40,744 nucleotides of DNA from an uncultured bacterium (GTDB lineage: Bacteria; Fidelibacterota; UBA2242): NCBI GenBank assembly GCA_964589175.1, contig CAZPRY010000010.1:62000-102743 (forward strand), read 5' to 3'. Numbering within the stretch: position 1 is the stretch's first letter; every line of letters begins with the position of its first letter. Positions 1,616 through 39,586 of this stretch are shown here, piece by piece. The translations under genes were made by a program, and so were the position numbers. A model generated the notes under the pieces. The model saw nothing but the letters and a program-made list of their open reading frames with translations, was not told where the DNA came from and did no database searches.

Positions 1616-3328
1616 GTGTTTCGAATGAATAATTTTCTAAGACGATTACAGACATCCATTATCCAGCGAATAAAAGTGCTATCGTTTCTGCGCCGGGAAA
1701 CGGGCTTCTCTTTGAAGGAAATTATCCTTCAAGGGGCTTTGGGCGGCCTCGCCAACGCGGTGATCCTGGTTATCATGACGATGGCCTTGCAGGATATTTA
1801 CGAAGAGACCGCCGATTTTCGAATTTTTCTGATGTATATCCTGGCGATGGTGATTCTGTTTATGGCGCAGCGCCGGCTCTACTTTCGGTGGGTTCATCTG
1901 CTGGAGGCGGGCGTTGATCGTACCCGCAATCACCTTGCCGGAGCGATTCTGAATAGTCGCCTGGATTTCATCGAGGGAATGGATCTGGGAGAAGTGTACA
2001 ATCGGCTTACCCAGGAGCTGAATAATATCGCGCAGTTCGGCGCTTTCCTGATCACCGGGATTCAATCCGTTTTCTTTTTACTCTTCATCGTCATATTCCT
2101 GGTGAGTTACTTTCTGCCCTCGGTGATTATTATCGGCATCATGACGCTGGCCGGGACCGTAATTTACCTGGGCATCATTCGGAGAATAAGCGAAAGATAT
2201 CAACATGTGAATGCCAAGGAGGTCGAGTATTTTGATCTTGTGCATGATATTCTGAAGGGAACGAAAGAGATTAAATATCATGCGGGTAGAAGAGAACACA
2301 TCGAGAATGATGCGGGCGAGGTATCCACCAACTTGAGAAATAAACGGATCGAGATTGGGCGACTCTATAATTTCGGTACGATCTTCGGAGCAACGTTTTT
2401 CTATGTTCTCTTCGGCGTGATTGTCTTTATCGTTCCCCTTTTCTACTCGCTACCGGCCGGGATGACGATTATTCTGGTGGCCGTTACGATTTATCTGACC
2501 AGCCCGATCAACGATCTTGTGGTCCGAATTCCAATATTCCAGAAAGTCGGGATTTCCATCGGATTCATCGAATCCCTGGAAAATCAACTGCTTAAGAATG
2601 AGGAAAAAATCATAGTCCCCGCTCCTCAAGCCGCCCGGACTCTGCAGGATTTCAGCCGAATTGAGTTGGATAAGATCTCATTTCGTTACAAGAATCATAA
2701 TAATGGCGACTATTTTTCCGTGGGCCCGCTTTCGCTGACCGTACGACGTGGTGAGATATTGTTTCTGACGGGGGGAAACGGTTGTGGTAAAACCACCCTG
2801 TTGAAGTTGATTGCGTCACTGTATACGCCCGATGAAGGGAAAATTCAGGTCGATGCAACTCAACTGAATGAAACCCATCTCTATGAGTACAGGGATCTAT
2901 TTTCCGCCGTTTTCTCTGATTTTCACCTTTTCGACAGGCTTTACGGTATCAATCTAGCGGACCAGAAGAGCTTACCGGACTATTTGGAAATAATGAAATT
3001 GACCGATAAGGTTTCGATCAAAAACGGCACTTTTTCGACTCTGGAACTCTCGACCGGCCAGCGCAAACGCCTGGCGTTGATTGTCGCTATTCTTGAGGAC
3101 AAACCGGTTTATCTTCTGGATGAATGGGCGGCTGAACAGGATCATGAATTGCGGGATTATTTTTACAAACATATGCTCGGGGATTTGCGGCGGAAAGGGA
3201 AAACTCTGGTTGTCGTGAGCCACGATGAGCGTTACTACAATTATGCGGACCGGGTTATTCAAATGGATTACGGAAAAATCAGGGAAGAAATCGCGACGAA
3301 TCATCAACAAACGCAGGAAAAGCAGTAG
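1616..3328 (+). CDS. ABC transporter, fused TMD-NBD half-transporter, SyrD/cyclic-peptide-exporter-like
   Basis: 570-aa ORF. N-terminal ~300 aa hydrophobic (about 6 TM segments). C-terminal NBD with Walker A GGNGCGKTT, signature LSTGQRKRLAL, Walker B VYLLDEWAAEQD, and H-loop VVSHDE. The LSTGQRKRLA/DEWAAEQD combination is typical of the cyclic-peptide transporter (SyrD/YojI-like) family. The ORF track starts at GTG 1616; the ATG at 1625 (MNNFLRR) is an equally plausible start. No clear SD for either. Confidence 0.85.
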   Translation: MFRMNNFLRRLQTSIIQRIKVLSFLRRETGFSLKEIILQGALGGLANAVILVIMTMALQDIYEETADFRIFLMYILAMVILFMAQRRLYFRWVHLLEAGVDRTRNHLAGAILNSRLDFIEGMDLGEVYNRLTQELNNIAQFGAFLITGIQSVFFLLFIVIFLVSYFLPSVIIIGIMTLAGTVIYLGIIRRISERYQHVNAKEVEYFDLVHDILKGTKEIKYHAGRREHIENDAGEVSTNLRNKRIEIGRLYNFGTIFGATFFYVLFGVIVFIVPLFYSLPAGMTIILVAVTIYLTSPINDLVVRIPIFQKVGISIGFIESLENQLLKNEEKIIVPAPQAARTLQDFSRIELDKISFRYKNHNNGDYFSVGPLSLTVRRGEILFLTGGNGCGKTTLLKLIASLYTPDEGKIQVDATQLNETHLYEYRDLFSAVFSDFHLFDRLYGINLADQKSLPDYLEIMKLTDKVSIKNGTFSTLELSTGQRKRLALIVAILEDKPVYLLDEWAAEQDHELRDYFYKHMLGDLRRKGKTLVVVSHDERYYNYADRVIQMDYGKIREEIATNHQQTQEKQ

Positions 3329-3330
3329 AG

Positions 3331-4959
3331 ATGCGGTTTTTTCGACTACTGAAAGAAGAGTTCGGGGAGGATTTTAATAAATATCTGACCATTTCCGTTG
3401 TGTCGGGATTGATGGTTGCCCTGATACTCGTCATCATCATGGTCGCGATGGGGGACGCCGAAGATCCATCCATTGCCCTGGGTCTTGCTTATCTCGCGGT
3501 GCTGATTACCTACGTTTTAGCGCAATATTATTTACTCAGCCAGGGCTGGCAAAAATCGGAGAGTATTTCGGATGTCATCCGCCGGCGTCTCTCGAAGAAA
3601 ATCCTGCAGGCGGATCTGGCGGGGATAGAAAACATCGGTGAAAGTGAGATTTTTGAACGACTGACTCAGGAGACCACCAATATTTCGCAGTCCGCCGTGT
3701 TCCTGATTCCGTCCTTTCAATCGGTGATTTTGCTTATCTTCATTATGATCTATTTGCTTTTTCTGTTTCCTTTAGGAGTGATTGCCCTGATAGCGTTGCT
3801 GGCGGCGGGCGGCTGGCTTTACTGGCGCCGGGCCCAGAAGATTACGCGGATTTTGAAGCACAGCAACGCCTACGAAATTCGCTTCTATCGGATTTTGAGT
3901 GATATTCTAAATGGTATTAAGGAGATAAAGCTGTTCCAGCGCCGAAAACAGGAGATTCTGAAAACCGTCGGAAAGATGTCGCACCTGCTCCGGAAAATCC
4001 ACAAGATCTGTTATCAGAGCTATTCCGAAGAGTTTATCGGTTCACAATTGTTCTTCTTTGTGCTGATCGGGGCGATTTTATTCCTGCTGCCCAGGATTGT
4101 AGAGATGGAAGTTGAAATTTCCATTAAACTGGTGACTTCGGCGTTTTTTATCATGGGGCCGGTTCTAAGCCTGGCGTTTATGATCCCGCTTTTTGAAAAG
4201 ATGAGGCTCTCTTTCGATTATATCCATGAGTTGGAGGAGCGCCTGGACGCGATCCAGGACCGGGCTTTTACGTTGGAACAGACCCAGGAAGATTTTCGGA
4301 ATTTCGGGAATATCGAAATCAGGGATACCGAATTCCATTACGTGAATCCCGGGGGCGACCGAGGGTTTCAAATCGGTCCGCTTAACCTGAAGATCACGAA
4401 GGGAGAAACTCTGTTTATTGTCGGCGGTAACGGCAGTGGCAAAACGACGATGCTAAAAATGTTGTCCTTGTTGTACTACCCAAGCAGCGGAGAAATTTTG
4501 ATAAATGAGGAGAGGATAGGAGATGCCCAGATCATTTCCTACCGGGAGATGTTTTCAGGGATATTTTCAGATTTTCATCTGTTCGCGAAGATGTATGGAT
4601 TCACACGAGAGGAGCTGGATCTCATCAAGCCTTTGCTGAAAAAAATGAAACTGGAGCAGAAAACAAACTTACGCGAAGATCGTTTTACAACGCTGAAACT
4701 TTCAACCGGGCAGCGCAAGCGCCTCGCGATGATTGTGACTTTACTCGAGGATAAACCGATCCTGATATTTGATGAATGGGCGGCCGAACAGGATGCGGAT
4801 TTCCGTGAGTATTTTTATGATACTATCTTGCCGGAGCTGAAAGAAAAAGGCAAGACAATCTTTGTTGTCACACATGATGAACGGTATCAGGGACTTGCAG
4901 ACCGGGTTGTTCAAATGGATTATGGTAAAATTTCGAAGCTTACCAGCATTCCTGCTTGA
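3331..4959 (+). CDS. ABC transporter, fused TMD-NBD half-transporter, paralog of the upstream gene (probable heterodimer partner)
   Basis: 542-aa ORF starting 3 nt after the upstream stop. Hydrophobic N-terminus. Walker A GGNGSGKTT, signature LSTGQRKRLAM, Walker B ILIFDEWAAEQD, H-loop VVTHDE. Same family as 1616..3328. Confidence 0.85.
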   Translation: MRFFRLLKEEFGEDFNKYLTISVVSGLMVALILVIIMVAMGDAEDPSIALGLAYLAVLITYVLAQYYLLSQGWQKSESISDVIRRRLSKKILQADLAGIENIGESEIFERLTQETTNISQSAVFLIPSFQSVILLIFIMIYLLFLFPLGVIALIALLAAGGWLYWRRAQKITRILKHSNAYEIRFYRILSDILNGIKEIKLFQRRKQEILKTVGKMSHLLRKIHKICYQSYSEEFIGSQLFFFVLIGAILFLLPRIVEMEVEISIKLVTSAFFIMGPVLSLAFMIPLFEKMRLSFDYIHELEERLDAIQDRAFTLEQTQEDFRNFGNIEIRDTEFHYVNPGGDRGFQIGPLNLKITKGETLFIVGGNGSGKTTMLKMLSLLYYPSSGEILINEERIGDAQIISYREMFSGIFSDFHLFAKMYGFTREELDLIKPLLKKMKLEQKTNLREDRFTTLKLSTGQRKRLAMIVTLLEDKPILIFDEWAAEQDADFREYFYDTILPELKEKGKTIFVVTHDERYQGLADRVVQMDYGKISKLTSIPA

Positions 4960-4998
4960 CTATAAAAACCAGATTCGCCAGTTTCGTTTTCGCATGAG

Positions 4999-7900
4999 AT
5001 GAGTAGAAAAGATCTACGACTTATGACGAATGAATCGACTAAGAATATCTTTCCACTGACGTCCAATCAAAAGTTGATTTGGAGCGAACAGCGGATTTAT
5101 CCGGTATCACCGCTGTACAATATTTGCACCTACATCGCCATAGACGGATTTGTCGATCCTGATTTGTTGCAGCGCGCAACTCAGATCGTGATCGATCAGA
5201 ATGATGCATTGCGTCTGCAATTTCTGGAAATCGATGACGAGCCTTATCAGCAGTTTCTTCCTCACCTTTCATACCAGCAGTCGAGTCTCGATTTCTCCGG
5301 CGAAGACGAACCCGTTCAGGCTTGTCTGGACTGGATGCAGACGCAGAATGAACGGTGTCTGGACATTAGCAGTGCTCCTCTTTTTCAGGCGGCATTATTA
5401 AAAGCTCGCCCTCAGCAGTTCTTCTGGTATTGCAAGATTCATCACCTGATCAACGACGGTTGGGGAAACCAGGTTCATATGCGGAAGATCACGGAAGCCT
5501 ACAATGCGCTGCTCCATCGAACGGATAGCTCTCCGGGCTTCCCGTACCGGGATTACATCGCAGCAGAATCGAATACTACCGATGCCAGGGATGACCGAAA
5601 AAGTATGGCTTTCTGGCGGGAGTATTTAAAACCATTGCCGCCGGCCCTTTTCAGGCAGCGCCCGGATCGGAAAAACATTAAAGCAGCCCGGACGTCCGCG
5701 CGTCAATCGCTCTCGATCTCCCGGGACCTGTATAAACGATTGTCCGATTTTGCGGCGGATCGGGAAATTTCGTTGTATCATCTATTTCTGAGCGTGATCT
5801 ATCTGATTTTCAGTCGTCTTCGCGATACCCGGGATCTAATCATCGGTCTTCCGGTTCTCAATCGCTCCGGGCAGAAGCACAAGTCGGGTTTAGGGCTGTA
5901 CACCGGAGTTTCATTGCTGAGAGTCCGACCGGGGTCCGGAGAGACCATAGCGGAAATAGTGACGTGGATACGATCGGAACTCCGCCGGATCTACCGTCAT
6001 CAGCATGTACCGTTATCAAAGATCAGATGGCGTTTATTTTCCAAAGAAGCGAACAAAGTGACCTTGTCCAGTCTGTCGGTCTCCTTTCTGGATCACCACC
6101 TGGGCCTTCGATTCGGTGAGGCTGTCGGGCAACTGAGAACGCTGTCCAACAACCATCAGCAGTTGCCGCTGACGATTTATATCCTCAAATATGATGATTC
6201 CGCAGACGCCCAGGTTGAATTCGATTATCACCTGTCCTATTTTACGCCGCAGGAAATGGCGCGAATCACCGGCCGCTTTTCGGAGACTCTCAATCTGGTT
6301 ATGGATAATTATAAAAAGCCGATCGATCAGATCGATATATTTACGCAGGAAGACAGAGAGCTGCTGGTCGGTTGTTCTGGTCCGGGGAGGTCAACGCTTC
6401 CGAAAAATGAAAGTCTTGCTGAACCGTTGAGCCAGGTGACGGAGCCAGCCAGCGGGCAGTCTGCCATCATGGTTGAGCGAGACGATCAAGCTCAGTGCGA
6501 AACGAACAGCGCCGAAACCAGATTAATCAATCTCTGGAAAAAAATCTTCATTCGAAAAAAAATCGGCAGAGACGATCATTTCTTCGAAATCGGTGGCCAC
6601 AGCCTTCTCGCGACGCGTCTCGTATCCATGATACGGACTGAATTTCAGGTTGAAATTCGATTGATAAGTATTTTCGATAATCCTGTTCTAAAGGATTTGG
6701 CCGTCCGGATTAGTTCGCTGGAAAAGGCCGCCAGGCGTTCTATACCGGTTGCAGATCAGAAAGCCTTCTATCCGGTCACTCCTCAGCAGCAAAATCTCTG
6801 GATTCTGTCCCATAAGCCGGGCGCCGGCAATATATACAATATTCCGATGGCCTTTCAGATTGGCGGAGGGATTGATAAAACCGCATTAGAGTCGGCTTTC
6901 CAGTCGATTGTTCAGAGGTACGAGATTTTACATACGGTGTTCATCGAAGAGGATGGTGTTCCATTTCAGCGCGTACTGGAAGATTATGGTTTCCATCTGA
7001 TCGAGCATGATTTGCGTCACGAAGCCGATAAAGAAGCTGCGGCGCGGCAAATTATCGAACAGTATGCCACAGAAAGATTTGATTTAGAACAGGGTCCCCT
7101 ACTAAAAGTGATTTTGCTGGAGTTGGAAAAGAACCGGCATGTACTGCTGATCAATATTCATCATATCATCATGGATGGTTGGTCTTGCGAAATATTGCTC
7201 CGTGAGCTCTCCGCGGCATATCGAAATCTGCCGCCATCGAGTACCGCTCCTTTGCTTCAATATAAAGATTATGCTGTCGGGCACGATCGTAAGCTAAGCG
7301 ATGGATCGCGGGAGACGCAACACGAGTACTGGAAAACCAAACTTAGCGGGGATTGGCTCCCGCTGGCCCTGCCGATGGATCACCCCCGACCTGCCCTTAT
7401 GACTTATCGCGGCGACCGGCTGCGACTGAATTTGCCTTCCGGTATTACCCGGGCTTTAGGCAATTTTGCCAGGACTCACGATACCAGCCCTTATATGCTC
7501 CTCACCGCCTTGGTCAAAATATTACTTTATCATTACAGCGGCCAGGACGATATCGTAGTCGGAACAGTGAATTCCGGAAGAACATCTGAAGAATGTATCG
7601 ATATCATAGGCTATTTTGTCCAGACGCTGCCATTACGGGATCAGGTAATTCCGGAAGAGCACTTTTCGCTCCTGCTCCAACGCGTGAAACAGACGATTCT
7701 CGAGGCCGACGCCAACCAGGACTATCCGTTTGAACGGATTGTTAAGGATTTGGATTTGCCGCTTGATCCTTCCCGTAATCCGCTTTTTGACGTATTTATT
7801 TCATATCAGGATAGTGAAGATTTTAAACTGGAATTGAAAGCACTAAGCGTCGAGAAATACGAGTTCGCCTATCCGATCAGCAAGTTTGACCTGAGTTTCG

Positions 7901-10900
7901 TTTTTGAGCAACGTGGCGAAGATCTTGCCCTGGATATCGAGTTCAATACGGATCTTTATCGACGTGACCGGATCGAGCGAATGGCCGGGCATCTGATTGA
8001 ACTTATTCGAAATGCGATGGCGCATTCGGATCGCCGTATTATGGATCTGTCGATCTTAAGTAAACGGGAGCGAGAGCAGATCCTGGATGAGTTTAATCAC
8101 GCTTCATCATCATCCCCGGATGACCGAACGATTGTAGAATTATTCCAGGAGCAGGTGCTAAAGTCTCCCGATCGGACCGCGGTGGAATTCGGGCAAAGCC
8201 GGATCAGTTATAGAGAATTGGATGAAGAGGCTGAAAAAGCAGCCCATCGTCTCCGCGAACAACATCGGGTTCAACCGGGAGATATTGTCGCTGTACTGCT
8301 GGAGCCATCCGAGCGATTTATCATCTCTATAATGGGAATTTTGAAAGCGGGTGCAGCCTATCTGCCGATCGATCCGATGGCTCCGACTGAGCGGGTTCGG
8401 TTCATGTTGCGTGACAGCAGCAGCGAGGTGTTAATCAGCGATGTCGCCGGTTTGCAGGAGGTCGATGCAATTCCTGATTTAATCGTCGTGGATATTGATG
8501 AAGTACGAACGAGCGAATCCCAAATCGCAAAGAACCATGAATCCCGCGCCCCAAAAGCGGGTCCCGATGATCCGGCATATATGATCTATACTTCGGGTAC
8601 GACCGGCTTCCCGAAAGGGGTGCTGATCGAGAATCGCTCTCTGGTGAATCTCATTTACGCTCAAAAACGCCAGATAGGTTTTACGCAGGACGAACGGCAT
8701 CTCTTGTTCTTTTCGATCTCATTCGACGGATCGGTTTTCAATATTTTCCTGGCCCTGCTTAGCGGCGCTTGCTTGTTGATCCCGAAAAAAGAAATTCTGC
8801 TGGAGCCGGAAAACTTTTGCCAATTCCTGGTTGATTCCGGAACAACTTCACTGATCGTAACGCCTTCTTTTTTACATCAGTTATCCCGGGAAAAATTTCC
8901 GACAATCCGGTGGATCGGTACCGGCGGCGAGCCGGTCATCGCGGAAGACGTTGCTTACTATAGTGCCCGGATGGATTACTTTAATTTTTATGGGCCGACC
9001 GAAGCCACAATCGTGGCGATCAGCTGCCGATTAACGCCGGAGAGCAGCCAACGGGATCTGATTGGAACCCCGGTAGATAACTGCGACATCTTCATACTGG
9101 ATGAATCGATGAATCTGCGGCCGGTCGGGATTGCGGGCGAGATATGTATTGGCGGTGCCGGACTGGCAAAGGGGTACCTGAACCGACCGGAACTCACGGC
9201 CGATAAGTTCGTGACAAATCCGGTTAGGACAGGGGAACTGCTCTACCGCACGGGGGACTATGGTTGCTGGTTGCCGGACGGATCGATTGAATTCTTCGGC
9301 CGCCGGGACAACCAGGTTAAAGTGCGCGGATATCGTGTTGAGTTGGATGAAATCGTGGCGACACTGCATAAGTATCCGGGCATAAAGCAGGCGGTTGTCA
9401 CGACAAAGAAATCTGATTCCGGCAACGCGCGATTATTGGCGTATGTCTCCGGGGATCAACTGGAGCAGAATTCGAAAACGGTTGCAGAAATCAGGGATTA
9501 TCTACAAAAATCGCTACCGTTTTATATGCTTCCATCTTCCATCGTTGTCGTACCCCAAATCCCGCTCACAATTAACCAAAAGGTTGATTTTAAACGGCTT
9601 TCCGGCATGGAGGTAAAGGTCCGGGGAACGATTCCCGCGGCCGATAAAGCTGTACGGAAACTATGCGAAATTTTCGGGACCGTTCTGGGGGTCGAGATTT
9701 CCGGTATCCAGCCAGCTGCCTATTTTTTTGATCTGGGCGCAACGTCATTTGATTTAATGAAAGTTCGCGGAAGAATCAGAACTGTTCTTGGCATAGAAGT
9801 TCCCATTACGGCTTTTTTCCAACATCCGTCGATCAATGAGCTGGCCGCTTATATCGCCTCCGGTCAGAAGAAAGAAAAAATTGATCCGGTCCGGGATTCC
9901 GGAACCATCCCGAAAAAGGACAAGATCGCGATTATCGGGATGGCGGGTCGCTTCCCGGGTGCTGAAAATATTACCGAATTCTGGAACAATCTTATCGAGG
10001 GCAAAGAAACCATCCATTTTTTTACAGAGGAGGAGCTGGAAAATGAGGGCCTTCCGCCTGATTTATTCCGGGCTCCGAATTATGTAAAAGCCTTTGGAAT
10101 GCTCTCCGGAGCGGACTGTTTTGATTCCCAATTTTTCTCCTATCCCGGGTCGTGGGCGGAGTCCCTGGATCCGCAGATTCGTATTTTCCACGAAGTTGTA
10201 TATGCGGCGTTGGAAGATGCCGGGGTAGCGCCCGGCGCTTTCCCGCACCGAATTGGACTCTATGCCGGCTCGAGCGATAACTATCGCTGGAGACGATTCA
10301 TTCAAGGAGCCGGTCAAACCGGGGAAAACGAGGGCTGGATCGATTATATGCTGGCAATTCGTGATTTCCTGACGACTCATGTTGCCTATAAACTAAATCT
10401 GAGGGGTCCGGCTGTTTTTGTGCAGACCGGTTGTTCTACTTCCCTATCCGCCACTCATATGGCGTGCCGGTCTCTCCAGATGGGGGAGTGCGAGCTTGCT
10501 ATTGCCGGGGGAGTGACGGTATCGCTGCCTTACGATAAGGGCTACCATTATGAGGAGGGGATAATTTTCTCTCCGGATGGACATTGCCGTGCTTTTGATG
10601 CGGAAGCATCCGGTACGGTTCCGGGCAATGGCGCCGGAGCTGTTGTTTTGAAACCGCTGGAGCAGGCCGTCCGCGACGGCGATTACATTTATGCAGTCAT
10701 TGCCGGAACTGCGATGAATAATGACGGTTCGCTGAAAGCCGGTTTCACCGCGCCGGCTGTTGAAGGGCAGGTCCAGGTGATCCGGGCGGCCCGGCAAGAA
10801 GCCGGTTGCGATGTGGAGAGTATTGGATATGTCGAAACCCATGGTACCGGAACGATATTAGGCGATCCGGTTGAGATATCCGCCCTGGAGCAGGCTTTTG

Positions 10901-13900
10901 CTTCGGAAAAGCGGCAATTCTGTGCCATTGGATCGCTGAAAACCAATCTCGGCCATCTGGATGCAGCCGCGGGGGTGGCGGGTTTGATCAAGACCGCACT
11001 GTCCTTAAACTTTGCTAAGATTCCGCCCAGCCTGCATTTTAAAACCCCCAATCCACAGATTGATTTTGAACACAGCCCGTTCTATGTGAATACGGAGTTA
11101 AAAGAGTGGCCACGACAGGGAACGAATGCCGATCCGATTCGCAGAGCGGGGGTCAGTTCTTTCGGGATTGGCGGAACCAATATGCACATGATCCTGGAAG
11201 AGGCGCCGCGACCCGAGAATATTCCAGCAGGAACGAATCCACTGCCCCGGATTCTTCCCCTTTCCGTGAAAGATCCTGACACCCTAAACAGGATACGAAC
11301 GAATCTGGTCGATTTTCTACGCAAACATCCCCATTCCCGACTCCAGGATCTATCCTATTCTTTGCAGTTCGGACGTGAAAGCCATGTATATCGCCATGCC
11401 TTTACCGTCGTGAATGTCGAAGAGGCAATCCTAAAATTGTCAGATTCGATTTCACCGGATAAAATTATCAAGACCGACATTACGAAATCTTCCAAAATCG
11501 TTTTCCTGTTTCCCGAATCCGGAACTGATTTCCTGGCGATGGGACGCGACTTATACCGGTGGTACCCGAGATTCAGACAAGAGATAGACAGCGGTAATGA
11601 GTCGCTAAGGAAGATTGCCGGCACAGATGTAAAACCCCTGCAGATTGCCTCGGATAGTTCATTTTCATTGGACCGGGATGGGGAGGACTCCGAAATCGCT
11701 CGCCTGGTGTTGGTGATTTTCGGGTACGCCCTCGGAAAACTGCTTGAAAGTTGGGGGGTGCGCCCGGATGCCGTTGCCGGCTACGGTTTGGGAGAATATA
11801 CCGCGGCTTGTTTTTCCGGGATCATGACGCTTGATGAGGCGCTACAACTGGCGCTGGAACGAAACGAACTCCTCACACTTGCACAGGATGCGTCAACTGC
11901 CCGGCCCACAAAAAGAGTACAACAATTTTCTTTACAGACGCCCCGAATTCCTCATTTGTCAGGTTTGTCGGGGGCCTGGATCACGGATCAGGAAGCCCGG
12001 GACAGCGGCTACTGGCAGAATCGATTCAGCCAGACATCTCCTTTCGCAGCAAAGCCGCAAGAGCTCCTGGCAATCGAATACGCGATTTATATCGGGTTTG
12101 GGTCAGATAATCTGTTCACGGAAGCTTTTCAGGAGCACCCGGATCGCGGGCCGGGCCAGCAGCTCATAAATCTGTTCCCAGGTTCGGATCAGGAGAAAGC
12201 GAGTCCCGCGTATCTCCTCAATCGGATTGCGGATCTTTGGTGCATGGGATCTATGATCGATTGGACGGCGGTTTATCCCGGTCCGCATCGAAAAATTCCC
12301 CTGCCCGGCTATCCGTTTCAACGAAAGAGATTTCCCGTCAAGCCGCCGGTCACTCAGCTAAATCAGAATTTCGTGTCGGAAAAACAGGAAGAGCTGGAGA
12401 ATTGGTCCTACGTGCCATCATGGGAACGTGTCCCGTTCGGGATAGATGAAGATAGTGAAACAGTCGTGATATTGCTTTTTTCGGACGGAAATCCGCTGGA
12501 ATATCAATTCCTCGAATACTTCCGGTCCAGATCACTCAAATTTATCACGGTCGGCAGCGGAGCACAATTTATACGCAGCAGCGCTGACCGATTTTACATC
12601 CGACCGACAGAACGCGACGACTATCTGGCGCTTTTCCGGCAACTGGCCGATGAAGATTTGGTGCCGGATAAGGTAGTTCATCTTCGATCATTGGATATAA
12701 GGGTCCGGGAGTCAGAAAACCTTGAGGATGCCCTGCAGAAAAGTTTCTATGGTCTCCAGCATATCGTAGCTGCCCGGACTTCCTGCGCTATTCATAATCC
12801 CGTTTCCCTGATTGTGGTTACCGAGAATCTTTTTGAGGTTCAGGGCGACGAAGAGATCGATCCAATCAAAGCACTGGTCACGGGACCTGTTCTGACGATT
12901 CCGCAGGAATATCCGGAAATTCGGATCTCTCTTATCGATATCGATCCGCTTCAAATTCGATGGAAAGGCGCGACCCGGCTACCGGCCCGCCTGCTGGCGG
13001 AAGGTAGAGATCGCCCCGGGCATGAGATTATCGCTTATCGCGGTCGCTATCGATGGAAAAGGAAATATACGCCAATTCCGTTAAAAGAAGCTTCGCCGGG
13101 CGATCTACCGCTTCGTAATAAGGGAAGCTATTTGATTACCGGAGGCTCCGGCGGGATAGGTTTCAGCATTGCGAAATACCTGGCCGGTAGCTATCAGGCG
13201 CGCCTGGCGTTGGTGGCCCGCCGGGGAGTTTCCGATGAGATGCAACAAACGCTGAAGGAACTCGGGGCAGACGTATTGGCATTTTCAGCGGATGTTGCAG
13301 ACTACCGTGAAATGCAAAAAGTCTTTAGCGCAGTGGCGGAACGATTTGGGAGGATTGACGGAGTAATACACGCTGCGGGAGTAGCGGACGGGGCGGTTAT
13401 CCAGAATCGAACCCGGGAACAATCAGAACTGGTTCTGGAACCGAAGGTGTCGGGTACTCTGAACTTGCACAGACTGCTGGAAGGCAAACAAACAGATTTC
13501 GTCCTGCTCTGTTCCTCGCTGGCATCCGTCATACCGATTATTGGTCAGTTCGCCTACTGCTCGGCAAATGCCTTCGAGGATGCGTTTGCGAACAAAATGA
13601 GTAATTCGGGCGACACTCGTTGGTGTTCGGTCAGTTGGGACAGATGGCTGGATGTTGGCATGGCCGCCCGGTTCCTGGAAGGTCATGAAGGCGGACAGAT
13701 CGGGATTCATACGGATGCCGGAATCGAAATTTTTAAACGGATTCTGAACAGGCAAGAACCCCACATCATCATATCAACTGGAAGTCTGGATCCGCAAGTT
13801 GAAAAGCTAAGAGATACGAGATCCGTTTTTTTGGAATTGAAACACAGTGCCGGGATCAGAAATACTGAATCGATTGATGGAGAGCTTCTTGCGGATACGA

Positions 13901-30129: not shown

Positions 30130-33100
30130 ATGAGAATTTCTGCACAGGATCTGCTTCAGAACGAACACAGCAAGAGAGAACTATCCGATTTTCTGGAACG
30201 CGTAAATCGCACGGAGACCGATTTTCCGAAGGATAAAACAGTAGTCGATCTCATATCGGAATTGGCCGGAAGCTGCCCGCAAAGGATCGCACTGGTCTTT
30301 GAAAATCAATCGCTGACCTACGCCCAACTGGAAACGAATTCGAATCGACTGGCCGAATTCCTGAGCAATCGAGAAATCGGGCCGGGCTTCGTGGTTGCGG
30401 TTCTGTTGGAGCGTTCTCTTGAGATCGTAATCGCTATGCTGGCTATATGGAAGGCTGGAGCCGTTTTCTGCCCCATGAGTACCCGCATTCCATTTGAACG
30501 CCAAAAATATATCATCAATGATACGGCGGCAGCCATGCTGATTTCTCAGCGAAAATTTACCCGGGATATCAATCGCTTGCAGTGGGAGTGCCCGAAATTG
30601 CGGAACATTCTGTGCCTGGACAGCGAGGATTTCTTCAAGGAGATCGAAGCAGGCACCTCGATAATGGACCAGGAACTCTGGGATTATATCGGCGCCGAAG
30701 CCCACGATGATATCTCTGCCGGTGGCTGGAAAAGTGCCTTTTCCGGGGAATGGCTTGGCCGCGAGGTCATGGATCAATATTCCGAAAATATCTTCCGGAA
30801 ACTGTCCCCTTATTTACATAAAGAAATGAAGATCCTGGAGATCGGGTGCTCCTCCGGGATCAGTATGTTCCGGTTAGCACCACTGGTCGGGGAGTACTAC
30901 GGAGTTGATATCTCCGCGACGATTCTGGAATATTCGCGCAAGGAAGCCGCCAGAAGAGGATGCGGAAATATCATTTTAAAACGACTGGGAGCTCACGAGA
31001 TCGATTCTTTGAGAGCGGACGGTTTCGACATCATGATCTTAAACAGCGTAGCCCAGAGTTTCAGCGGGCATAATTATTTCCGGGACACCCTGCGCAAGTC
31101 CATTGATCTGATGAAAGATAACGGTATTATTTTTCTGGGGCACATCTGGGATCAGGATGAAAAGGCAGCCCATCTGAAATCGATTGAAGACCATCTGAAT
31201 CGCAATAAAAGTACAGGCAAACAGGTCATCGCAGATCTCACTCAGGATCTGTACATATCGAGGAATTTTCTACGGGATTTGCGCTACGATCTTCCCGAAA
31301 TAGAGAGTGTTGAGTTTTCCGAGATGGATGCGGACCGGAGAGAACTTTCCTCATACAGCTTCGACGCAATCTTAAAAATCAACAAAACGGCAGCACCGGA
31401 CAGACTATTAACTGCGCAGAGAAGCCGATACCAATTTGACAATAGGGCTGTTCTTCAAAACTCCGGCGAATCATTTCGCAATCGATCCGAAGCTGGGCAG
31501 GCCGCATATCTCATCTATACTTCCGGTACCTCGGGTCAGCCGAAGGGTGTTGTCAATCTGCACCGCTCTCTGGTGAATGTCTTATTATCCGAAATTGAGG
31601 AAATATTTAAAAACTATGATGGTATTCTCAGAGTCGCGCATATCCTTTCTTTTAGTTTCGATGCTTCATTGATCGGTTTACTGGCCTCCTTTCTGAAAGG
31701 CCATACGGTTTATATCGTGGAGGATTATATCATCTATGATAGTCGATTGCTCGCAGAATATTTGATATCGAATCAAATTGAGGTCTTCAGTAGTTCGCCG
31801 GCCCTTCTGTCCGTGCTTTTTCGGGATACTGTTTTTCGAAATCAAAGTGGCGGCCTTAAACATATCATAGCCGGCGGTGAGGAGTTACCAGTATCGATGG
31901 TTCGGGATCTGTATTCGATTCAAGGATGTAGCGGAGTATCGATTACCAATGCCTACGGACCGACCGAGTGCTGTATCGAGGTAAGCCTGCAAACCATCAA
32001 TCATGAATCCTTTCAATCGTATCCGAAAATTCCGATTGGGAAACCGATTCAGAACGTCCGCATTCAGATTCTCGATTCAGAGCTACTTCCCGTGCCGGTG
32101 GGAATTCCGGGAGAGATCTGTATCGCCGGGGAAGCGCTCGGCTGGGGATATTTGAATGATGTCGAGCTGTCTCATCAAAGATTTGTGAAATCTCCGCAGG
32201 ATGGGGAGCTGCTCTACCGGACGGGTGACATTGGACGCTGGCTGAAAAGCGGGGTGCTTGAGTTTATGGGCAGGAATGACGGCCAGGTGAAAGTTCGGGG
32301 ATTTCGGGTTGAACTCGGGGAAGTCGATTCCGTAATCGAAAGCCATGAAGGAGTTCTGCGCAGTGTAACCATAGCGAAAAATCTTTGCGGGGATTACAGG
32401 GAATTACTGTCGTATATTCAGATTACCGAAGAGGACATCGATCTAAAAAGGCTGCGCGAATTCCTCAGACAGCGCTTACCGGAATATATGATCCCGAGTT
32501 ATTTTATTCCTGTCGATCGCTATCCTCTCACGCTGAACGGCAAAGTCGATAAGTCGGCGCTTCCATTGCCGGAGCCGAGTATCAATGGTGGCAACTCACG
32601 GATTTTTAAAACGAACAATCCGATTGAAGAGCGGTTACAACAGATCTGGAAAGAAATTCTGCTTCTGGAACGGGTTGCGATCAATGATAATTTCTTTGAC
32701 ATCGGGGGACATTCACTCAGCGCCGTCCAGATGATGTATAAGATCGAGACAACCTTCGGGGTCCATCTACCGCTGAGTATCCTCTTCCATGAGAGTACGA
32801 TTGAGCAGATTGCCAAACATATCCAGAAAAAAGAGGAAGCGGTTCAATATTCGCCGGTCATCGCGGTGCGCAAAAGCGGAAAACTACCCCCGCTGTTCGG
32901 CTTTCATCCGGTTGGGGGGAACATTTTGTGTTACTACGATCTCGCTCAGCAACTGCCGGGTGATTTGCCGCTGTATATGTTTCAATCGACCGGTTTACAG
33001 AAGGATCCCCCCATCCGATTGGAAACGGTTGAGCAGATGGCGGATTATTATCTGAAGCATATCAGGGAGATCCAGCCGGCGGGCCCCTATTTTTTAATGG

Positions 33101-33660
33101 GATATTCCTTCGGGGGGATGGTTGCTTTCGATATTGCCCGGAAATTATCCGCGGAAGGGGCAGAGGTCCCCTTGCTCGCAATTCTGGATTGTGGCACCAT
33201 TCATCATTCTGCTGACGAGCTGATGAAACGGGACGAGTCCGGATTCATCGCCCATCTGCTTGCAGAATATCTGGAACTCGATGAAGAGTATATGCGAACT
33301 CTGGATCGGGATGCGAGATTGGCCTATATCACAAGAGAGGCGCATCAGGCCGGCGTCGTGGATGAAGGTTTTGGGGTCGAGAACACGAAACAAATGATCA
33401 ATATTTATTCCGCCAATGGAATGGCTGCCGTGAAATATCAGCCTCAGCCGTATACGGGCAAAATTGTTTTGTTCCGCGCCGAGGAGCATTCGCGTTCATC
33501 GTTTTTAGATAACGATTGCACGACGCTCGGGTGGGAACGATATTCGGCCCAGGAGATCGAGCTCCATTTCGTGCCCGGGAAACATGATACAATGCTGATA
33601 AAGCCATACGTCGATACGCTGGCGCAAAAACTTTCGCAGATAATCCGGAGAATGACCTGA
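30130..33660 (+). CDS. Terminating NRPS: A (interrupted by a methyltransferase between motifs A2 and A3)-T-TE
   Basis: 1176-aa ORF, 15 nt after the ORF2 stop. A1 LTYAQLETNSNRLA; A2 IWKAGAVFCPM. An ~270-aa insertion then carries class-I SAM-MTase motifs: ILEIGCSSGISMF (motif I, ~30831), YGVDIS, FDIMILNSV, NGIIFLG. The A domain resumes with A3 YTSGTSGQPKG (~31516), FDAS, NAYGPTECCIEV, YRTGD, NGKVD. T: GGHSL (~32704). TE: GYSFGG (~33100). Confidence 0.95.
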   Translation: MRISAQDLLQNEHSKRELSDFLERVNRTETDFPKDKTVVDLISELAGSCPQRIALVFENQSLTYAQLETNSNRLAEFLSNREIGPGFVVAVLLERSLEIVIAMLAIWKAGAVFCPMSTRIPFERQKYIINDTAAAMLISQRKFTRDINRLQWECPKLRNILCLDSEDFFKEIEAGTSIMDQELWDYIGAEAHDDISAGGWKSAFSGEWLGREVMDQYSENIFRKLSPYLHKEMKILEIGCSSGISMFRLAPLVGEYYGVDISATILEYSRKEAARRGCGNIILKRLGAHEIDSLRADGFDIMILNSVAQSFSGHNYFRDTLRKSIDLMKDNGIIFLGHIWDQDEKAAHLKSIEDHLNRNKSTGKQVIADLTQDLYISRNFLRDLRYDLPEIESVEFSEMDADRRELSSYSFDAILKINKTAAPDRLLTAQRSRYQFDNRAVLQNSGESFRNRSEAGQAAYLIYTSGTSGQPKGVVNLHRSLVNVLLSEIEEIFKNYDGILRVAHILSFSFDASLIGLLASFLKGHTVYIVEDYIIYDSRLLAEYLISNQIEVFSSSPALLSVLFRDTVFRNQSGGLKHIIAGGEELPVSMVRDLYSIQGCSGVSITNAYGPTECCIEVSLQTINHESFQSYPKIPIGKPIQNVRIQILDSELLPVPVGIPGEICIAGEALGWGYLNDVELSHQRFVKSPQDGELLYRTGDIGRWLKSGVLEFMGRNDGQVKVRGFRVELGEVDSVIESHEGVLRSVTIAKNLCGDYRELLSYIQITEEDIDLKRLREFLRQRLPEYMIPSYFIPVDRYPLTLNGKVDKSALPLPEPSINGGNSRIFKTNNPIEERLQQIWKEILLLERVAINDNFFDIGGHSLSAVQMMYKIETTFGVHLPLSILFHESTIEQIAKHIQKKEEAVQYSPVIAVRKSGKLPPLFGFHPVGGNILCYYDLAQQLPGDLPLYMFQSTGLQKDPPIRLETVEQMADYYLKHIREIQPAGPYFLMGYSFGGMVAFDIARKLSAEGAEVPLLAILDCGTIHHSADELMKRDESGFIAHLLAEYLELDEEYMRTLDRDARLAYITREAHQAGVVDEGFGVENTKQMINIYSANGMAAVKYQPQPYTGKIVLFRAEEHSRSSFLDNDCTTLGWERYSAQEIELHFVPGKHDTMLIKPYVDTLAQKLSQIIRRMT
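30600..31450 (+). other. Methyltransferase domain embedded in A5 between core motifs A2 and A3
   Basis: Class-I SAM-binding motifs I, post-I, II and III as listed above. The placement (a2-a3) differs from the common a8-a9 N-methyltransferase insertion. Confidence 0.8.
32600..32830 (+). other. Carrier domain T5
   Basis: DNFFDIGGHSLSAV. Confidence 0.8.
32850..33657 (+). other. Thioesterase (type I, chain-releasing) domain
   Basis: GxSxG as GYSFGG. Conserved Asp/His positions are plausible (ILDCG...; HFVPGKHDTM). Confidence 0.8.
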
Positions 33661-36988: not shown

Positions 36989-37064
36989 GAGAATCGACGG
37001 CGACAGGTATCACAATCTTTGAAATGATTTTTATTATTATGAACACAAAAAGGCAGGGTTTCTT

Positions 37065-37235: not shown

Positions 37236-37262
37236 TAAATACACGCTCACAAGGAGGTAACG

Positions 37263-38104: not shown

Positions 38105-38878
38105 ATGGAGCTGTACTTGCCGGTGGCGGAGAAGAACGGAATGACATTACCGATAAGTCGAGAAGCTAATAAACGGATTCGACTGTACTGCCTACCCTAC
38201 GCGGGCGGCAATGCAAGTATTTTTCAGGCCTGGAAAAGGGACCTGGATCACCGCGTCGAACTATATCCCGTCGGACTTGCGGGGCGGGGTAGCCGTTTGG
38301 GCGAGGCGCTCAGTGCTTCGATTCAGGAGGCCGCCCAGGATGCGTTCTCCGGTCTGAGATCTGAATTTGACCGGTTCGAGTATGCGCTATTCGGTCACAG
38401 CATGGGCGCCTTAATCGCATTTGAATTGGCGAGGATCATCAGCCATTCCAATGTGAAGCAACCGGCGCATATCTTCTTCTCGGGCAGAGAGGCGCCCCAT
38501 ATTTCCGCGAACGGATCCCCAAAGTACCACCTCATGCCCGAAGATGAATTTCGAGAGGAGATCCTCAAAATGGGAGGCACTCCGCCGGAAATTTTCCAGA
38601 ACAGACAGTTGCGCGAATTGTTCGTGCCGATTTTGCGGAATGATTTTCGCATTACGGAAAACTATGCTCTCGGTGCGGGTGACGTTCGGTTCGATAATCC
38701 TATCTCGGTCTTGGTCGGCGAAGACGAGGACTACAGCCGGGAGGAGATTACGGGTTGGCGAGGGTACAGCAGCGCCGCATGCGATATCCGGAGTTTCAAA
38801 GGCGGACACTTCTTTATTAAGGACAGTGAAAAGCTGGTATTGGAAAGCATCAACTCGACTTTGCGGAATTATCTCTGA
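38105..38878 (+). CDS. Type II (editing) thioesterase
   Basis: LYCLPYAGGNASIF N-terminal motif; GHSMGA nucleophile elbow (~38397); 257 aa. The ATG at 38141 (MTLPIS..., preceded by ggagaaga) is an alternative start. Confidence 0.85.
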   Translation: MELYLPVAEKNGMTLPISREANKRIRLYCLPYAGGNASIFQAWKRDLDHRVELYPVGLAGRGSRLGEALSASIQEAAQDAFSGLRSEFDRFEYALFGHSMGALIAFELARIISHSNVKQPAHIFFSGREAPHISANGSPKYHLMPEDEFREEILKMGGTPPEIFQNRQLRELFVPILRNDFRITENYALGAGDVRFDNPISVLVGEDEDYSREEITGWRGYSSAACDIRSFKGGHFFIKDSEKLVLESINSTLRNYL

Positions 38879-38905
38879 ACTCAACAAATAAGCCGATTTC
38901 GCATC

Positions 38906-39586
38906 ATGACCAGGTTAGCTGCAGTTAAAATCGACAGGGATTATCCACGTCAGAAGTTTCTGCAACTACTGGATAGTATTTCAGTCGAGAAAAAGGAACG
39001 AATCCTGCGTTTCCGGCAGTATCCGGATGCCTTACGGGGACTGATCGGTGAGTTGCTGCTGCATTTCATGCTGGATCGGTTCGATTCCGTTGATTCAGCA
39101 GACAGATCGGTCCGAATGAATGAATTCGGCAAACCGTTTTTTGAATTTATAAAGGATGTTCATTTCAATATCTCTCATTCAGGTGACTGGGTGGTGTGCG
39201 GGATCAGCCGCCAGCCGATCGGTGTGGATGTGGAAGAGATCGGGGAAATACCGGCGGATGTGACCGGGCGATATTTCACATCCGAGGAAGTAGAACAGAT
39301 CCCGGCCGGGCGCGGCGCAGAGAGTGAAAAAAGATTTTACCAGATCTGGACGCTTAAAGAGAGTTATATCAAAATGGAAGGCCAGGGATTATCGATTCCG
39401 CTTGATTCTTTCTCCATCCAAATTTCGGAGAAAAACAGTATCGGCGTTAAAATCAGGGGAGAGGAATCGAAAAGCCATTATTTTCGCAGCTATTATCCCG
39501 ATCAAACCCATATCTTATCCGCCTGTTCTCTGCAGGAATTCAAAGATGTCGGACTGCAATTTATCGGGATCAATGAAATTATGTAA
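38906..39586 (+). CDS. 4'-phosphopantetheinyl transferase, Sfp-type
   Basis: GKPFF, FNISHSGDWVVCG, GVDVEEI, WTLKESYIKMEG; 226 aa. Confidence 0.85.
   Translation: MTRLAAVKIDRDYPRQKFLQLLDSISVEKKERILRFRQYPDALRGLIGELLLHFMLDRFDSVDSADRSVRMNEFGKPFFEFIKDVHFNISHSGDWVVCGISRQPIGVDVEEIGEIPADVTGRYFTSEEVEQIPAGRGAESEKRFYQIWTLKESYIKMEGQGLSIPLDSFSIQISEKNSIGVKIRGEESKSHYFRSYYPDQTHILSACSLQEFKDVGLQFIGINEIM

Follow-up and report, generated by a model that had tools for sequence, protein, structure and literature searches.

The 40,744-nt stretch of DNA analysed here (the window) carries a real and intact gene cluster of the hybrid peptide-polyketide type from an uncultured bacterium. Its three megasynthases (M1–M3) probably form a lipoinitiated hybrid NRPS / AT-less PKS line that is built like the thalassospiramide synthetases but has its own module for each step. 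Judging from the encoded domains and by analogy with those synthetases, the product is most likely a depsipeptide that bears a fatty acyl group, contains a statine-type unit and a vinylogous Thr ring, and ends in an N-methylated residue, i.e., a relative of the thalassospiramide protease inhibitors rather than a new kind of molecule.

The gene cluster

The cluster comprises seven ORFs, all on the + strand. In the ORF list they lie exactly where an earlier annotation made from the letters alone (the sequence-only reading) had placed them.

1616..3328, + strand: ABC exporter 1, a permease–ATPase fusion (TIGR01194, 318 bits, cut-off 286; Pfam ABC_membrane and ABC_tran)
3331..4959, + strand: ABC exporter 2, a permease–ATPase fusion (TIGR01194, 300 bits, cut-off 286)
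4999..21054, + strand: megasynthase M1, 5351 aa (C0-T0 / C1-A1-T1 / KS1-AT remnant-KR1-T2 / C2-A2-T3 / C3-A3-T4 / half-C tail)
21055..30114, + strand: megasynthase M2, 3019 aa (KS2-DH-KR2-T5 / C4-A4-T6 / C5)
30130..33660, + strand: M3, 1176 aa (A5-T7-TE, with an MT inserted in A5 between core motifs A2 and A3)
38105..38878, + strand: type II thioesterase, GHSMG (PF00975, 5e-38)
38906..39586, + strand: Sfp-type 4'-phosphopantetheinyl transferase (ACPS and AASDHPPT_N; AusB/HetI matches weak, below cut-off)

Both ABC proteins score above the curated cut-off of TIGR01194, the cyclic peptide export ABC transporter family. Together with the PF00975, ACPS and AASDHPPT_N matches, they bear out the exporter pair, type II TE and Sfp-type PPTase that had been proposed as flanking genes. 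The TEII/PPTase pair is found 4.4 kb downstream of M3, and the six genes in between are without evident biosynthetic link. As the start of M1, gene callers choose the ATG at 5023. The megasynthase genes had also been described as translationally coupled, which is plausible, with the TAA of M1 directly followed by the ATG of M2; strict adjacency applies only to this junction, a 15-nt spacer being present between M2 and M3. The 28.6 kb of coding sequence of M1–M3 run in three unbroken frames. Over the stretches covered by other contigs (M3, M1 up to codon 3,300, and the TEII/PPTase pair), all the independent metagenome assemblies compared were near-identical and had intact frames. No AT gene was found within the window or 5 kb downstream.

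Domain organization and catalytic motifs

Pfam and an in-window phmmer search gave the same 6 C, 5 A, 2 KS, 1 DH, 2 KR, 8 carrier and 1 TE domains that the sequence-only reading had counted, plus 1 MT. With E-values as low as 1e-224, chance is excluded as an explanation of the domain matches. The resulting strings are C-T-C-A-T-KS-(AT remnant)-KR-T-C-A-T-C-A-T-(half C) for M1, KS-DH-KR-T-C-A-T-C for M2 and A(MT inserted)-T-TE for M3, with the following components.

5044..6366, + strand: C0, starter-type condensation domain (HHLINDG), N-terminal; best PDB match RzmA starter C
6523..6705, + strand: T0, carrier of the A-less first module (GGHS)
6763..9855, + strand: module 1, C1-A1-T1; A1 code DGFIGGFIVK
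9919..11040, + strand: KS1 (TGCSTS, HGTGT, NLGH), from Pfam and motifs
11500..12438, + strand: degenerate, shortened AT remnant; GHS changed to GYG, catalytic His motif lost
12469..13647, + strand: KR1, structural and catalytic subdomains; Rossmann GGSGGIG, Tyr/Ser/Lys present
13921..14133, + strand: T2, ACP of PKS module 2, from domain search and motif
14170..17262, + strand: module 3, C2-A2-T3; A2 code DGFICAHIMK, A2 70% identical to A1
17305..20433, + strand: module 4, C3-A3-T4; A3 code DFWNIGMIHK (Thr)
20443..21051, + strand: half-C tail of M1, 205 aa, from hhalign
21130..25587, + strand: PKS module 5, KS2 (DTACSS)-DH (EHRIAGKPTLVG, HPGMLD)-KR2-T5, without AT
25663..28743, + strand: module 6, C4-A4-T6; A4 code DAFWLGGTFK (Val)
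28798..30111, + strand: C5 (NHIVCDG), C domain of the split last module, from domain search and motif
30577..31449, + strand: methyltransferase inside A5 (motif I ILEIGCSSG; Pfam Methyltransf_31/12/25/11)
32890..33600, + strand: TE (GYSFG), same class as the TEs behind KS-DH-KR modules

Every carrier has its serine, and both KS domains keep the Cys-His-His triad; Tyr/Ser/Lys in the KRs, His and Asp in the DH, GYSFG in the TE and motif I in the MT are likewise in place. Stachelhaus extraction gave DAISIGAIEK for A5. By comparison with published Stachelhaus codes, those of A3 and A4 are for Thr and Val, in agreement with the substrates proposed before. Domain order, intact motifs and A codes likewise uphold the colinear module reading that had been put forward, from the first amino acid through the methylated last residue to the TE.

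Three features of M1 had been overlooked: the dead AT remnant, the half-C end and the aberrant P-loop of A2. The AT-like stretch, aligned with two functional trans-ATs, lacks the catalytic Ser and His and covers only positions 1–121 of the 319-position Pfam profile. The half-C tail matches columns 221–429 of the C-domain alignment in hhalign (probability 94%, E 1e-7); it is the C-terminal lobe of a condensation domain with the catalytic lobe missing, and comparable tails are found in four Bacillota/Acetivibrio loci, each of them also with a KS-first gene further along. The P-loop of A2 reads YTSDTTGSPKG, with Asp in place of Gly (Asp codon 15991–15993), a replacement found only in A2 among the 201 A3 motifs examined. 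A2 may therefore lack activity, which would make the position-3 residue uncertain.

Proposed biosynthesis

In the route that we propose, C0 would use acyl-CoA or acyl-ACP as the donor to place a fatty acyl group on an amino acid on T0, a carrier charged in trans by a neighbouring A domain. C1-A1-T1 would add amino acid 1, and KS1-KR1-T2 would perform one malonyl extension and ketone reduction giving a gamma-amino-beta-hydroxy (statine-type) unit, with the malonyl unit supplied by an AT whose gene lies elsewhere, probably FabD of fatty-acid synthesis. Amino acid 2 (C2-A2-T3) and Thr (C3-A3-T4) would follow, and KS2-DH-KR2-T5 would turn Thr into 4-amino-5-hydroxy-hex-2-enoate (vinylogous Thr). 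Once Val had been added by C4-A4-T6, C5 and the separate protein A5(MT)-T7-TE would join the N-methylated last residue, and the TE would release the product by forming an ester between the carboxyl of the last residue and the hydroxyl derived from Thr. Export would be by the two TIGR01194 proteins, while all eight carriers would be primed by the PPTase and, when misloaded, cleared by the type II TE. We infer N- (rather than O- or C-) methylation, macrolactonisation with its ring size, and a protease-inhibiting activity.

Starter, release and alternative readings

The sequence-only reading had put an unspecified starter on T0 and had missed that the first module is an A-less C-T with a starter-type C domain; from its features and by analogy, this module is better read as lipoinitiating. 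C0 stands apart from the other five C domains (21–23% identity to C1–C5), and its best PDB match is the RzmA starter C (RzmA-Cs; 7c1h/7c1k/7c1p, E 4e-42, the next match being at 8e-31). Upstream of it there are only ABC genes. The gap between C0 and T0 is ~50 aa, so that no A domain fits, and T0 is closest in sequence to T3, which makes A2 or A1 its likely loader. Charging of A-less C-T starter modules by the A domain of another module has been shown experimentally, Ttm A2 loading T1 and Ttc A3 loading T1a (bioRxiv 10.1101/560987). We infer a fatty acyl starter and in-trans loading of T0 here. It is very unlikely that T0 receives instead, as first supposed, a non-lipidated small starter from an enzyme encoded elsewhere. 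Such a reading would suit the fact that no starter A domain, acyl ligase or ACP is encoded within the window; however, an N-terminal C before T0 requires a donor, the closest solved relative of C0 is a lipoinitiating domain, and the Ttm precedent is the fatty acylation of a trans-loaded amino acid (bioRxiv 10.1101/560987). Somewhat unlikely, and compatible with the lipoinitiated line that we favour, is a non-colinear operation yielding congeners of various length, a matter solely of the way in which the line is operated. Ttc and Ttm use module skipping, pass-back and trans loading (bioRxiv 10.1101/560987), and the A-less module, the possibly dead A2 and the paralogous A1 and A2 of the window would be in keeping with this. 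However, the Ser-C2(OH)-Val linker of Ttc and Ttm arises only via pass-back (bioRxiv 10.1101/560987), whereas the window has a dedicated NRPS-PKS(KR) pair for its statine-type unit, making iteration unnecessary; and since its line is one module longer than Ttc, long products would need no pass-back.

With the same backbone, the TE might hydrolyse the chain to a linear lipopeptide acid or close a larger ring via another hydroxyl, e.g., the statine-type beta-hydroxyl, a second one that the domain order would supply. Sequence cannot reveal TE chemistry, but we consider both outcomes unlikely in view of the company that the M3 TE keeps. It scored 149–223 bits (32–40% identity, ~270 aa) against eight of eight TEs located behind a KS-DH-KR module, and also against two TEs with the upstream DNA cut off, versus at most 65 bits against all 27 TEs without such a module in front (25 from pure-NRPS A(MT)-T-TE proteins, the other two from loci with the KS on the opposite strand). 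All eight same-class loci, including Oceanibaculum, have Ser/Thr-KS-DH-KR exactly two amino-acid modules before the TE, although this class could reflect ancestry of the hybrid clusters and not release chemistry. A 12-membered ring is borne by all thalassospiramides (PMC4350077). That the cluster is decaying or silent, and makes no product, we regard as highly doubtful. The dead AT, the lost A domain, the half C domain and the mutated A2 P-loop would point that way, as would the undetectable product in some strains with thalassospiramide clusters. Yet the three megasynthase frames are unbroken with all other catalytic residues intact, the stretches covered by other assemblies are free of frameshifts, and AT-less and A-less modules work in Ttc and Ttm (bioRxiv 10.1101/560987).

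Comparison with known systems

The nearest relative of the PKS part is an uncharacterised metagenomic locus (L004; JGI 3300038831, P0190), with identities of 56% for KS, 50% for KR, 42% for C4, 34% for DH and 40% for TE. Its A(Thr)-T / KS-DH-KR-T is followed, as in the window, by two amino-acid modules and a TE; unlike the window, the locus lacks an MT, has an unsplit last module, carries genes for a discrete AT and for an MbtH protein, and differs in its A codes. A DH with EHxxxGxPTLVG and HPxxLD is common to the window, L004, three Chlorobiaceae loci and a Nitrospirillum locus (L086). Closest to the M3 A core, the MT and C5 are A(MT)-T-TE proteins that stand alone in pure NRPS clusters, e.g., of Candidatus Parabeggiatoa, Thiomargarita, Opitutaceae and Acanthopleuribacter (48–50% identity to the MT, ~42% to C5). 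In these loci the preceding gene has a C domain at its end, which makes the C / A(MT)-T-TE split a common one within the family; unlike M3, these proteins have a TE of another class (≤65 bits to the M3 TE) and no PKS modules before. The ring of the syrbactins (syringolin SylC/SylD, glidobactin GlbF/GlbC), a covalent proteasome warhead, is also built by an NRPS module and then KS-KR-DH, but it is a macrolactam closed via a Lys-derived amine, and the lines are cis-AT, much shorter, and not known to have a statine-type unit or A(MT)-T-TE protein. Their 12-membered ring with an alpha,beta-unsaturated amide has been noted (PMC4350077).

The sequence-only reading could match the domain order to no characterised pathway known to it, and would have given way to a close homologue of the same order in a known cluster. 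In fact the order is nearly identical in the thalassospiramide Ttc line of Thalassospira sp. CNJ-328, C-A-T-KS-AT-T / C-A-T-C-A-T-KS-DH-KR-T-T-C-A-T-C / A(MT)-T-TE (bioRxiv 10.1101/560987), but the sequences are distant. It differs from Ttc in four points: the added N-terminal C-T, which equals the A-less starter module of Ttm (Tistrella mobilis), a KR and a dead AT in the first PKS module, where Ttc has an active AT and no KR, and only one carrier behind KR2 instead of the tandem pair of Ttc. The starter C domain is shared with Ttc and Ttm, and the NRPS module followed by a PKS module giving a statine-type unit with Ttc module 1a/1b. Ttc, Ttm and the Oceanibaculum pacificum locus (L041) have in common with the window a hydroxy-amino-acid module ahead of an AT-less KS-DH-KR-T, then a Val module, and a last module divided into C and A(MT)-T-TE, the MT lying between motifs A2 and A3. 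In TtcC, with the four domains A(MT)-T-TE, the MT lies on the N-terminal side of A6 and has been shown experimentally to N-methylate (bioRxiv 10.1101/560987), and the window MT sits in the same place. Ttc and Ttm operate without a cluster-encoded AT (bioRxiv 10.1101/560987); the window and Ttc both lack an AT gene and have a PPTase gene (TtcD in Ttc), and the TE class and DH subtype are likewise those of Ttc, Ttm and L041.

The end of the window line, Thr / KS-DH-KR / Val / C / A(MT)-T-TE, is the part that in the thalassospiramides builds the 12-membered unsaturated ring, a covalent warhead against calpain (PMC4350077). L041 ends in A(Ser)-T-KS-DH-KR-T-C-A(Val-like)-T-C / A-MT-A-T-TE, a type of end also found in two other Rhodospirillales loci, and the window has this string with Thr for Ser and a Val code identical to that of locus L024. 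Oceanibaculum is a genus reported to make thalassospiramides. Unlike Ttc, Ttm and L041, which use Ser, the window has Thr, other protein break points, the extra half-C tail and an uncultured, probably non-proteobacterial source; its A5 code contrasts with DGxDxGxVxK in thalassospiramide-type loci, and two to three substrates differ in all. Identity per domain is 24–47% to L041 and 24–48% across seven thalassospiramide-type loci (KS 45–48%, DH 24–29%, C 27–34%, A 36–42%, MT 33–40%). For most domains these loci are less similar than unrelated clusters, and the best outside homologues reach only 39–40%. With such low relatedness, the logic shared with the thalassospiramide synthetases may be the result of convergence or mosaic assembly and not of descent.

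Gene organization of the cluster

Judged from its domain order, the cluster is a new variant that is thalassospiramide-like in its logic and in its terminal cassette but not orthologous in sequence to the known lines. It is carried by three megasynthase genes (M1, M2 and M3) in DNA with a G+C content of about 50% across the whole window.

Features of the cluster (positions in the window)
1616-3328 and 3331-4959, two ABC half-transporter fusions, co-directional with the megasynthases
4999-21054, M1, 5351 aa (a second ATG, at 5023, is the start in the gene calls of the public assemblies)
21055-30114, M2, 3019 aa
30130-33660, M3, 1176 aa
38105-38878, thioesterase of 257 aa, fitting a type II thioesterase (TEII)
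38906-39586, phosphopantetheinyl transferase (PPTase), a two-domain protein (AASDHPPT_N and ACPS) fitting the Sfp type

The ATG of M2 comes immediately after the stop codon of M1, and the spacer between M2 and M3 is 15 nt long. Both transporters passed the curated cut-off of TIGR01194 (318 and 300 bits, cut-off 286.2), a family of cyclic peptide export that includes SyrD-like proteins, while the PPTase scored below the NCBIfam equivalog cut-offs (AusB, HetI). A Pfam and ORF scan of the window and the 5 kb downstream found no gene for an acyltransferase (AT), MbtH protein, acyl ligase or free ACP; a 93-aa ORF 3' of M3 was considered as an MbtH candidate and rejected for lack of any Pfam match. 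Promoter and terminator scans gave background level only.

Between M3 and the TEII/PPTase pair (33732-37763) there are six genes with no evident biosynthetic link, i.e., the 93-aa ORF without family, a Band7/SPFH protein, an NMT1-like binding protein, a dCache sensor domain protein, a 56-aa membrane ORF and a DUF697 protein, which are syntenic wherever other assemblies span this interval. Past the window end (L007 5845-7551; L092) lie a sugar phosphorylase, for which the closest named relatives come from Marinimicrobia MAGs (61-67%), cobW, a B12-binding protein, SASA and a SusC-like TonB receptor. These neighbours hint weakly at an uncultured organism of the FCB group, possibly Marinimicrobia-like.

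Domain order and catalytic motifs

Domains were assigned with Pfam and with phmmer, using in-window domains as queries.

Domain order of the megasynthases
M1: C0-T0 / C1-A1-T1 / KS1-[AT-like]-KR1-T2 / C2-A2-T3 / C3-A3-T4 / 205-aa tail
M2: KS2-DH-KR2-T5 / C4-A4-T6 / C5
M3: A5, interrupted by a methyltransferase (MT) between core motifs A2 and A3, then T7 and TE

The cluster described by the sequence-only reading is confirmed, its module reading agrees well with the domain order and motifs, and its counts (6 C, 5 A, 2 KS, 1 DH, 2 KR, 8 carrier and 1 TE domains) are correct. What it overlooked is the absence of an A domain from module 0, a dead AT, the half-C nature of the M1 tail and a change in the P-loop of A2. 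The condensation motif is HHxxxD in five domains and NHxxxDG in C5, Cys-His-His is kept by KS1 and KS2, the Rossmann motif and the Tyr/Ser/Lys residues are kept by KR1 and KR2, and the DH carries the motifs EHRIAGKPTLVG and HPGMLD. The serine is present in all eight carriers, and the TE has GYSFG.

Module 0 has no A domain, since the gap between C0 and T0 is only about 50 residues. C0, at the N-terminus, is a putative starter-type condensation domain with the solved starter C domain RzmA-Cs as its best structural match (E 4e-42). Among the eight carriers, T0 (6523-6705) and T3 (17050-17262) are the most alike pair (43% identity), a faint hint that A2 may serve T3 plus the A-less T0; the outlier is T1, the carrier that feeds a KS.

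Neither KS module has a functional in-line AT, as in trans-AT (AT-less) modular PKSs. In the first of them (module 2, with KS1) a shortened AT-like stretch (11500-12438) matches the first third of the AT profile only, reads GYGLGE against the GHSLGE of active ATs and has lost the catalytic His motif. On this alignment it is a dead remnant with both catalytic Ser and His gone, and a functional in-line AT was rejected. The remnant suggests descent of module 2 from a cis-AT module like module 1b of Ttc, the thalassospiramide line of Thalassospira sp. CNJ-328. The second (module 5, with KS2) retains the KS-AT linker subdomains alone. The other trans-AT trait, a discrete AT in the cluster, is lacking; neither the window nor the 5 kb downstream contains an Acyl_transf_1 ORF. 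The related loci L004 (an uncharacterised metagenomic cluster, JGI 3300038831) and L005 differ in encoding one, whereas ttc and ttm (the latter from Tistrella mobilis) are like the window in this respect.

The 205-aa tail of M1 (20443-21051) corresponds to the C-terminal lobe of a condensation domain, the HHxxxDG lobe being missing (hhalign probability 94%, E 1e-7). This assignment comes from profile-profile comparison; a PDB sequence search with the tail found no match, and its single-sequence AlphaFold model was uninformative (pLDDT 35). Half-C tails of this kind may act as docking platforms at NRPS-to-PKS protein junctions. Like tails were seen after A-T in four Bacillota/Acetivibrio loci (L067, L033, L030, L038), each having a KS-first gene further along after a gap of 1.5-4 kb.

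Substrates of the adenylation domains

Specificity codes were read at ten positions after alignment to the Phe-activating domain of GrsA, with anchors that reproduce DAWTIAAICK.

Specificity codes of the adenylation domains
A1: DGFIGGFIVK
A2: DGFICAHIMK
A3: DFWNIGMIHK, Thr (one conservative change against the canonical code)
A4: DAFWLGGTFK, Val
A5: DAISIGAIEK

The calls of Thr for A3 and Val for A4 follow the published codes. A2 is 70% identical to A1 and has the P-loop YTSDTTGSPKG, in which codon 15991-15993 is GAC where GGC is expected; Gly occupies this position in 200 of 200 other A3 motifs from the window and the fetched loci. For the last A domain, the code of the window contrasts with DGVDVGAVSK in Oceanibaculum pacificum (L041), DGHDLGQVAK in L024 and DGHDIGQVCK in Nitrospirillum (L086), and thalassospiramides end in N-methyl-tyrosine. 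In total, the substrates differ from those of the thalassospiramide line at two to three positions.

Related loci in genomes and metagenomes

Searching genome contigs with M3 alone gave no relative. When an alignment of A(MT)-T-TE proteins was used to scan 185,579 species genomes, 78 loci were obtained, and we annotated them with HMMs of the window's own domains. The order A-T-KS-DH-KR-T-C-A-T-C / A-MT-A-T-TE was found in Oceanibaculum pacificum MCCC 1A02656 (the genus is reported in a review as a thalassospiramide producer), Rhodospirillaceae bacterium Z3-40 and Nitrospirillum. The same string, with the gene order permuted, was present in four Chlorobiaceae MAGs (L031, L034, L051, L087) as T-A(Val)-C-A(Ser) / A(MT)-T-TE / C-T-KS-DH-KR-T-C-A-T-C; a literature search found no report of thalassospiramide-type clusters in green sulfur bacteria. 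In these loci the Ser code DVWHFSLVDK is found in the A domain preceding the KS, and the next A is Val-like. The Val code of L024 is identical to that of the window, which has Thr where these loci have Ser.

The best homologue of M3 outside its own population among 5.8 billion proteins has 39% identity, and the best full-length match of the PKS part of M2 (P0190, from L004) has 40%; therefore, there is no close homologue in the collections searched. By domain-by-domain BLAST, L004 is nearest to the KS, KR, DH and C4 of the window (56, 50, 34 and 42%), and pure-NRPS A(MT)-T-TE systems hold the closest relatives of C5, the MT and the A core. L004 (contig Ga0400019_35112) has the order ...A(Thr)-T / KS-DH-KR-T-C-A-T / C-A-T-TE / discrete AT / MbtH, with the same predicted ring size as the window and no MT.

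The TE matches, with 149-223 bits, all eight TEs located behind KS-DH-KR (L004, three Rhodospirillales and four Chlorobiaceae) and two more with truncated upstream DNA; for L041, L024 and L086 the match is full length, with 150-170 bits and 32-35% identity. Against the TEs without a preceding KS-DH-KR it gave 65 bits or less in 27 cases out of 27, of which 25 are from pure-NRPS A(MT)-T-TE proteins. An unusual DH motif, HxxxGxPTLVG, is common to the window, L004, Nitrospirillum and three Chlorobiaceae loci (all but L034). Our reading of the distribution of TE class and DH motif is that these loci have a ring-forming cassette in common, attached to upstream parts that are unrelated.

Exact copies of M3 occur in metagenome assemblies from JGI, ENA and Logan. 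M2 has no exact protein record, and two metagenome scans for the A2 codon gave either no match or an unrelated NRPS. The contigs of independent assemblies that we compared show 99.9-100% identity to the window and no frameshifts, with 9 synonymous and 12 non-synonymous differences, a near-clonal population in which a selection test is therefore uninformative.

Proposed biosynthesis

The route that we favour as probable is thalassospiramide-like and lipoinitiated, ending in a terminal 12-membered lactone. C0 would fatty-acylate an amino acid loaded in trans on T0, modules 1 and 2 would produce a statine-type unit, and module 3 would add a residue akin to the one from module 1 (supplied by A1, should A2 be inactive). 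Modules 4 and 5 would form a vinylogous Thr, module 6 would add Val, and C5 together with M3 would add an N-methylated residue. The TE would then close the lactone through the Thr-derived hydroxyl, the 12-membered depsipeptide ring being predicted from module order and TE class only. Malonyl units would have to be supplied by an AT whose gene lies elsewhere, which is also the case in ttc and ttm, and the ABC pair would export the product. By analogy with thalassospiramides, nanomolar covalent calpain inhibitors in which the 12-membered unsaturated ring is the warhead (PMC4350077), the unsaturated ring would inhibit cysteine or threonine proteases covalently. The sequence itself establishes the domain order, the motifs, the Thr and Val codes, the dead AT, the A-less module 0 and the TE class, whereas the acyl starter, loading in trans, N-methylation, ring closure and activity are predictions.

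The alternatives touch different points of this route. Release of a linear product, or closure through another hydroxyl, would concern a TE that falls with those behind KS-DH-KR, and we consider it improbable. To the non-lipid starter of the sequence-only reading, weighed with a C0 that best matches RzmA-Cs and a window that encodes no acyl ligase, we give little credence. There is a similarly slim chance that the cluster is silent and decaying, putting the A2 P-loop and the AT remnant on one side and the frameshift-free contigs and conserved carrier serines on the other. That the line runs non-colinearly, by module skipping or pass-back, is given more weight, though less than even chances, and is compatible with the lipoinitiated lactone route; the extra modules of the window, one for each unit, would make pass-back unnecessary.

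The lactone route predicts analogues in which Thr gives a methyl-substituted ring and the residues at the first, third and last places differ, and it would carry this chemistry past the marine Rhodospirillales into bacteria that are uncultured. Metagenomes commonly contain large orphan NRPS-PKS clusters, and this one reveals no new enzyme type or pathway; the main points of note are its colinear layout, the cross-phylum ring-forming cassette and the absence of a close homologue.

Relation to known pathways

The syrbactin, pepstatin/statine, didemnin and barnesin pathways were rejected as the closest system, each sharing one feature (ring, statine unit or vinylogous residue) and not the whole order. 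The syrbactin line is short and cis-AT, its macrolactam ring being closed via a Lys-type amine, whereas the window has eight modules, no functional cis-AT and no Lys-type module at the ring position.

Ttc has the order C1a-A1a-T1a-KS1b-AT1b-T1b / C2-A2-T2-C3-A3-T3-KS4-DH4-KR4-T4a-T4b-C5-A5-T5-C6 / A6(MT)-T-TE plus the PPTase TtcD, and Ttm has the same order minus module 1b, modules 1 and 5 being A-less (bioRxiv 10.1101/560987). In these lines no AT is encoded in the cluster, C1 is a starter C, T1 is charged by the A domain of another module, and the MT, on the N-terminal side of A6, N-methylates (bioRxiv 10.1101/560987). Their products have the structure fatty acyl - aa - (aa-C2-OH) - Val - (Ser-C2-ene) - Val - NMe-Tyr, with an ester linking the terminal carboxyl to the Ser-derived hydroxyl.

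The claim of the sequence-only reading that its domain order matched no known pathway was thus wrong, the window following Ttc domain for domain apart from a few differences. It adds an N-terminal C-T, as in the Ttm starter; its first PKS module has a KR, absent in Ttc (no KR1b), and a dead AT where AT1b is active; one carrier follows KR2 instead of two; and the protein break points lie elsewhere. Before KS-DH-KR-T the thalassospiramide line has Ser and the window Thr (A3), with catalytic residues intact. Both continue with a Val module and a split C / A(MT)-T-TE; in the window C5 ends M2 and the MT lies between core motifs A2 and A3 of its A domain, and TtcC is described in the same way. The window has a putative starter C, the AT-less KS-DH-KR-T after a hydroxy-amino-acid module, the Val plus split last module and the TE class of the thalassospiramide type. 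At the sequence level the orthology test failed: among about 80 loci, those of the thalassospiramide type rank 9th-18th for KS and, for C, A and MT, 28th-79th, and the best 120 matches of M3, like those of M2's PKS part, include no Thalassospira or Tistrella protein.

To make the longer thalassospiramide congeners Ttc and Ttm need pass-back, and they are the textbook example of assembly lines sending chains backwards (bioRxiv 10.1101/560987). We tentatively suggest, as a possibility short of even chances, that the window is the fully colinear natural counterpart of that line in an uncultured non-proteobacterial bacterium, perhaps Marinimicrobia-like and of the FCB group, and that, with the Chlorobiaceae loci and L004, it reveals a portable warhead cassette. 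This cassette (Ser/Thr module, AT-less KS-DH-KR with special DH, two amino-acid modules and dedicated TE class) might have spread across phyla, fused to varied N-terminal halves, and the pass-back of Ttc and Ttm might be a secondary economy derived from such a colinear line. With a separate module per unit, the window offers a natural comparison for what makes Ttc and Ttm iterate.
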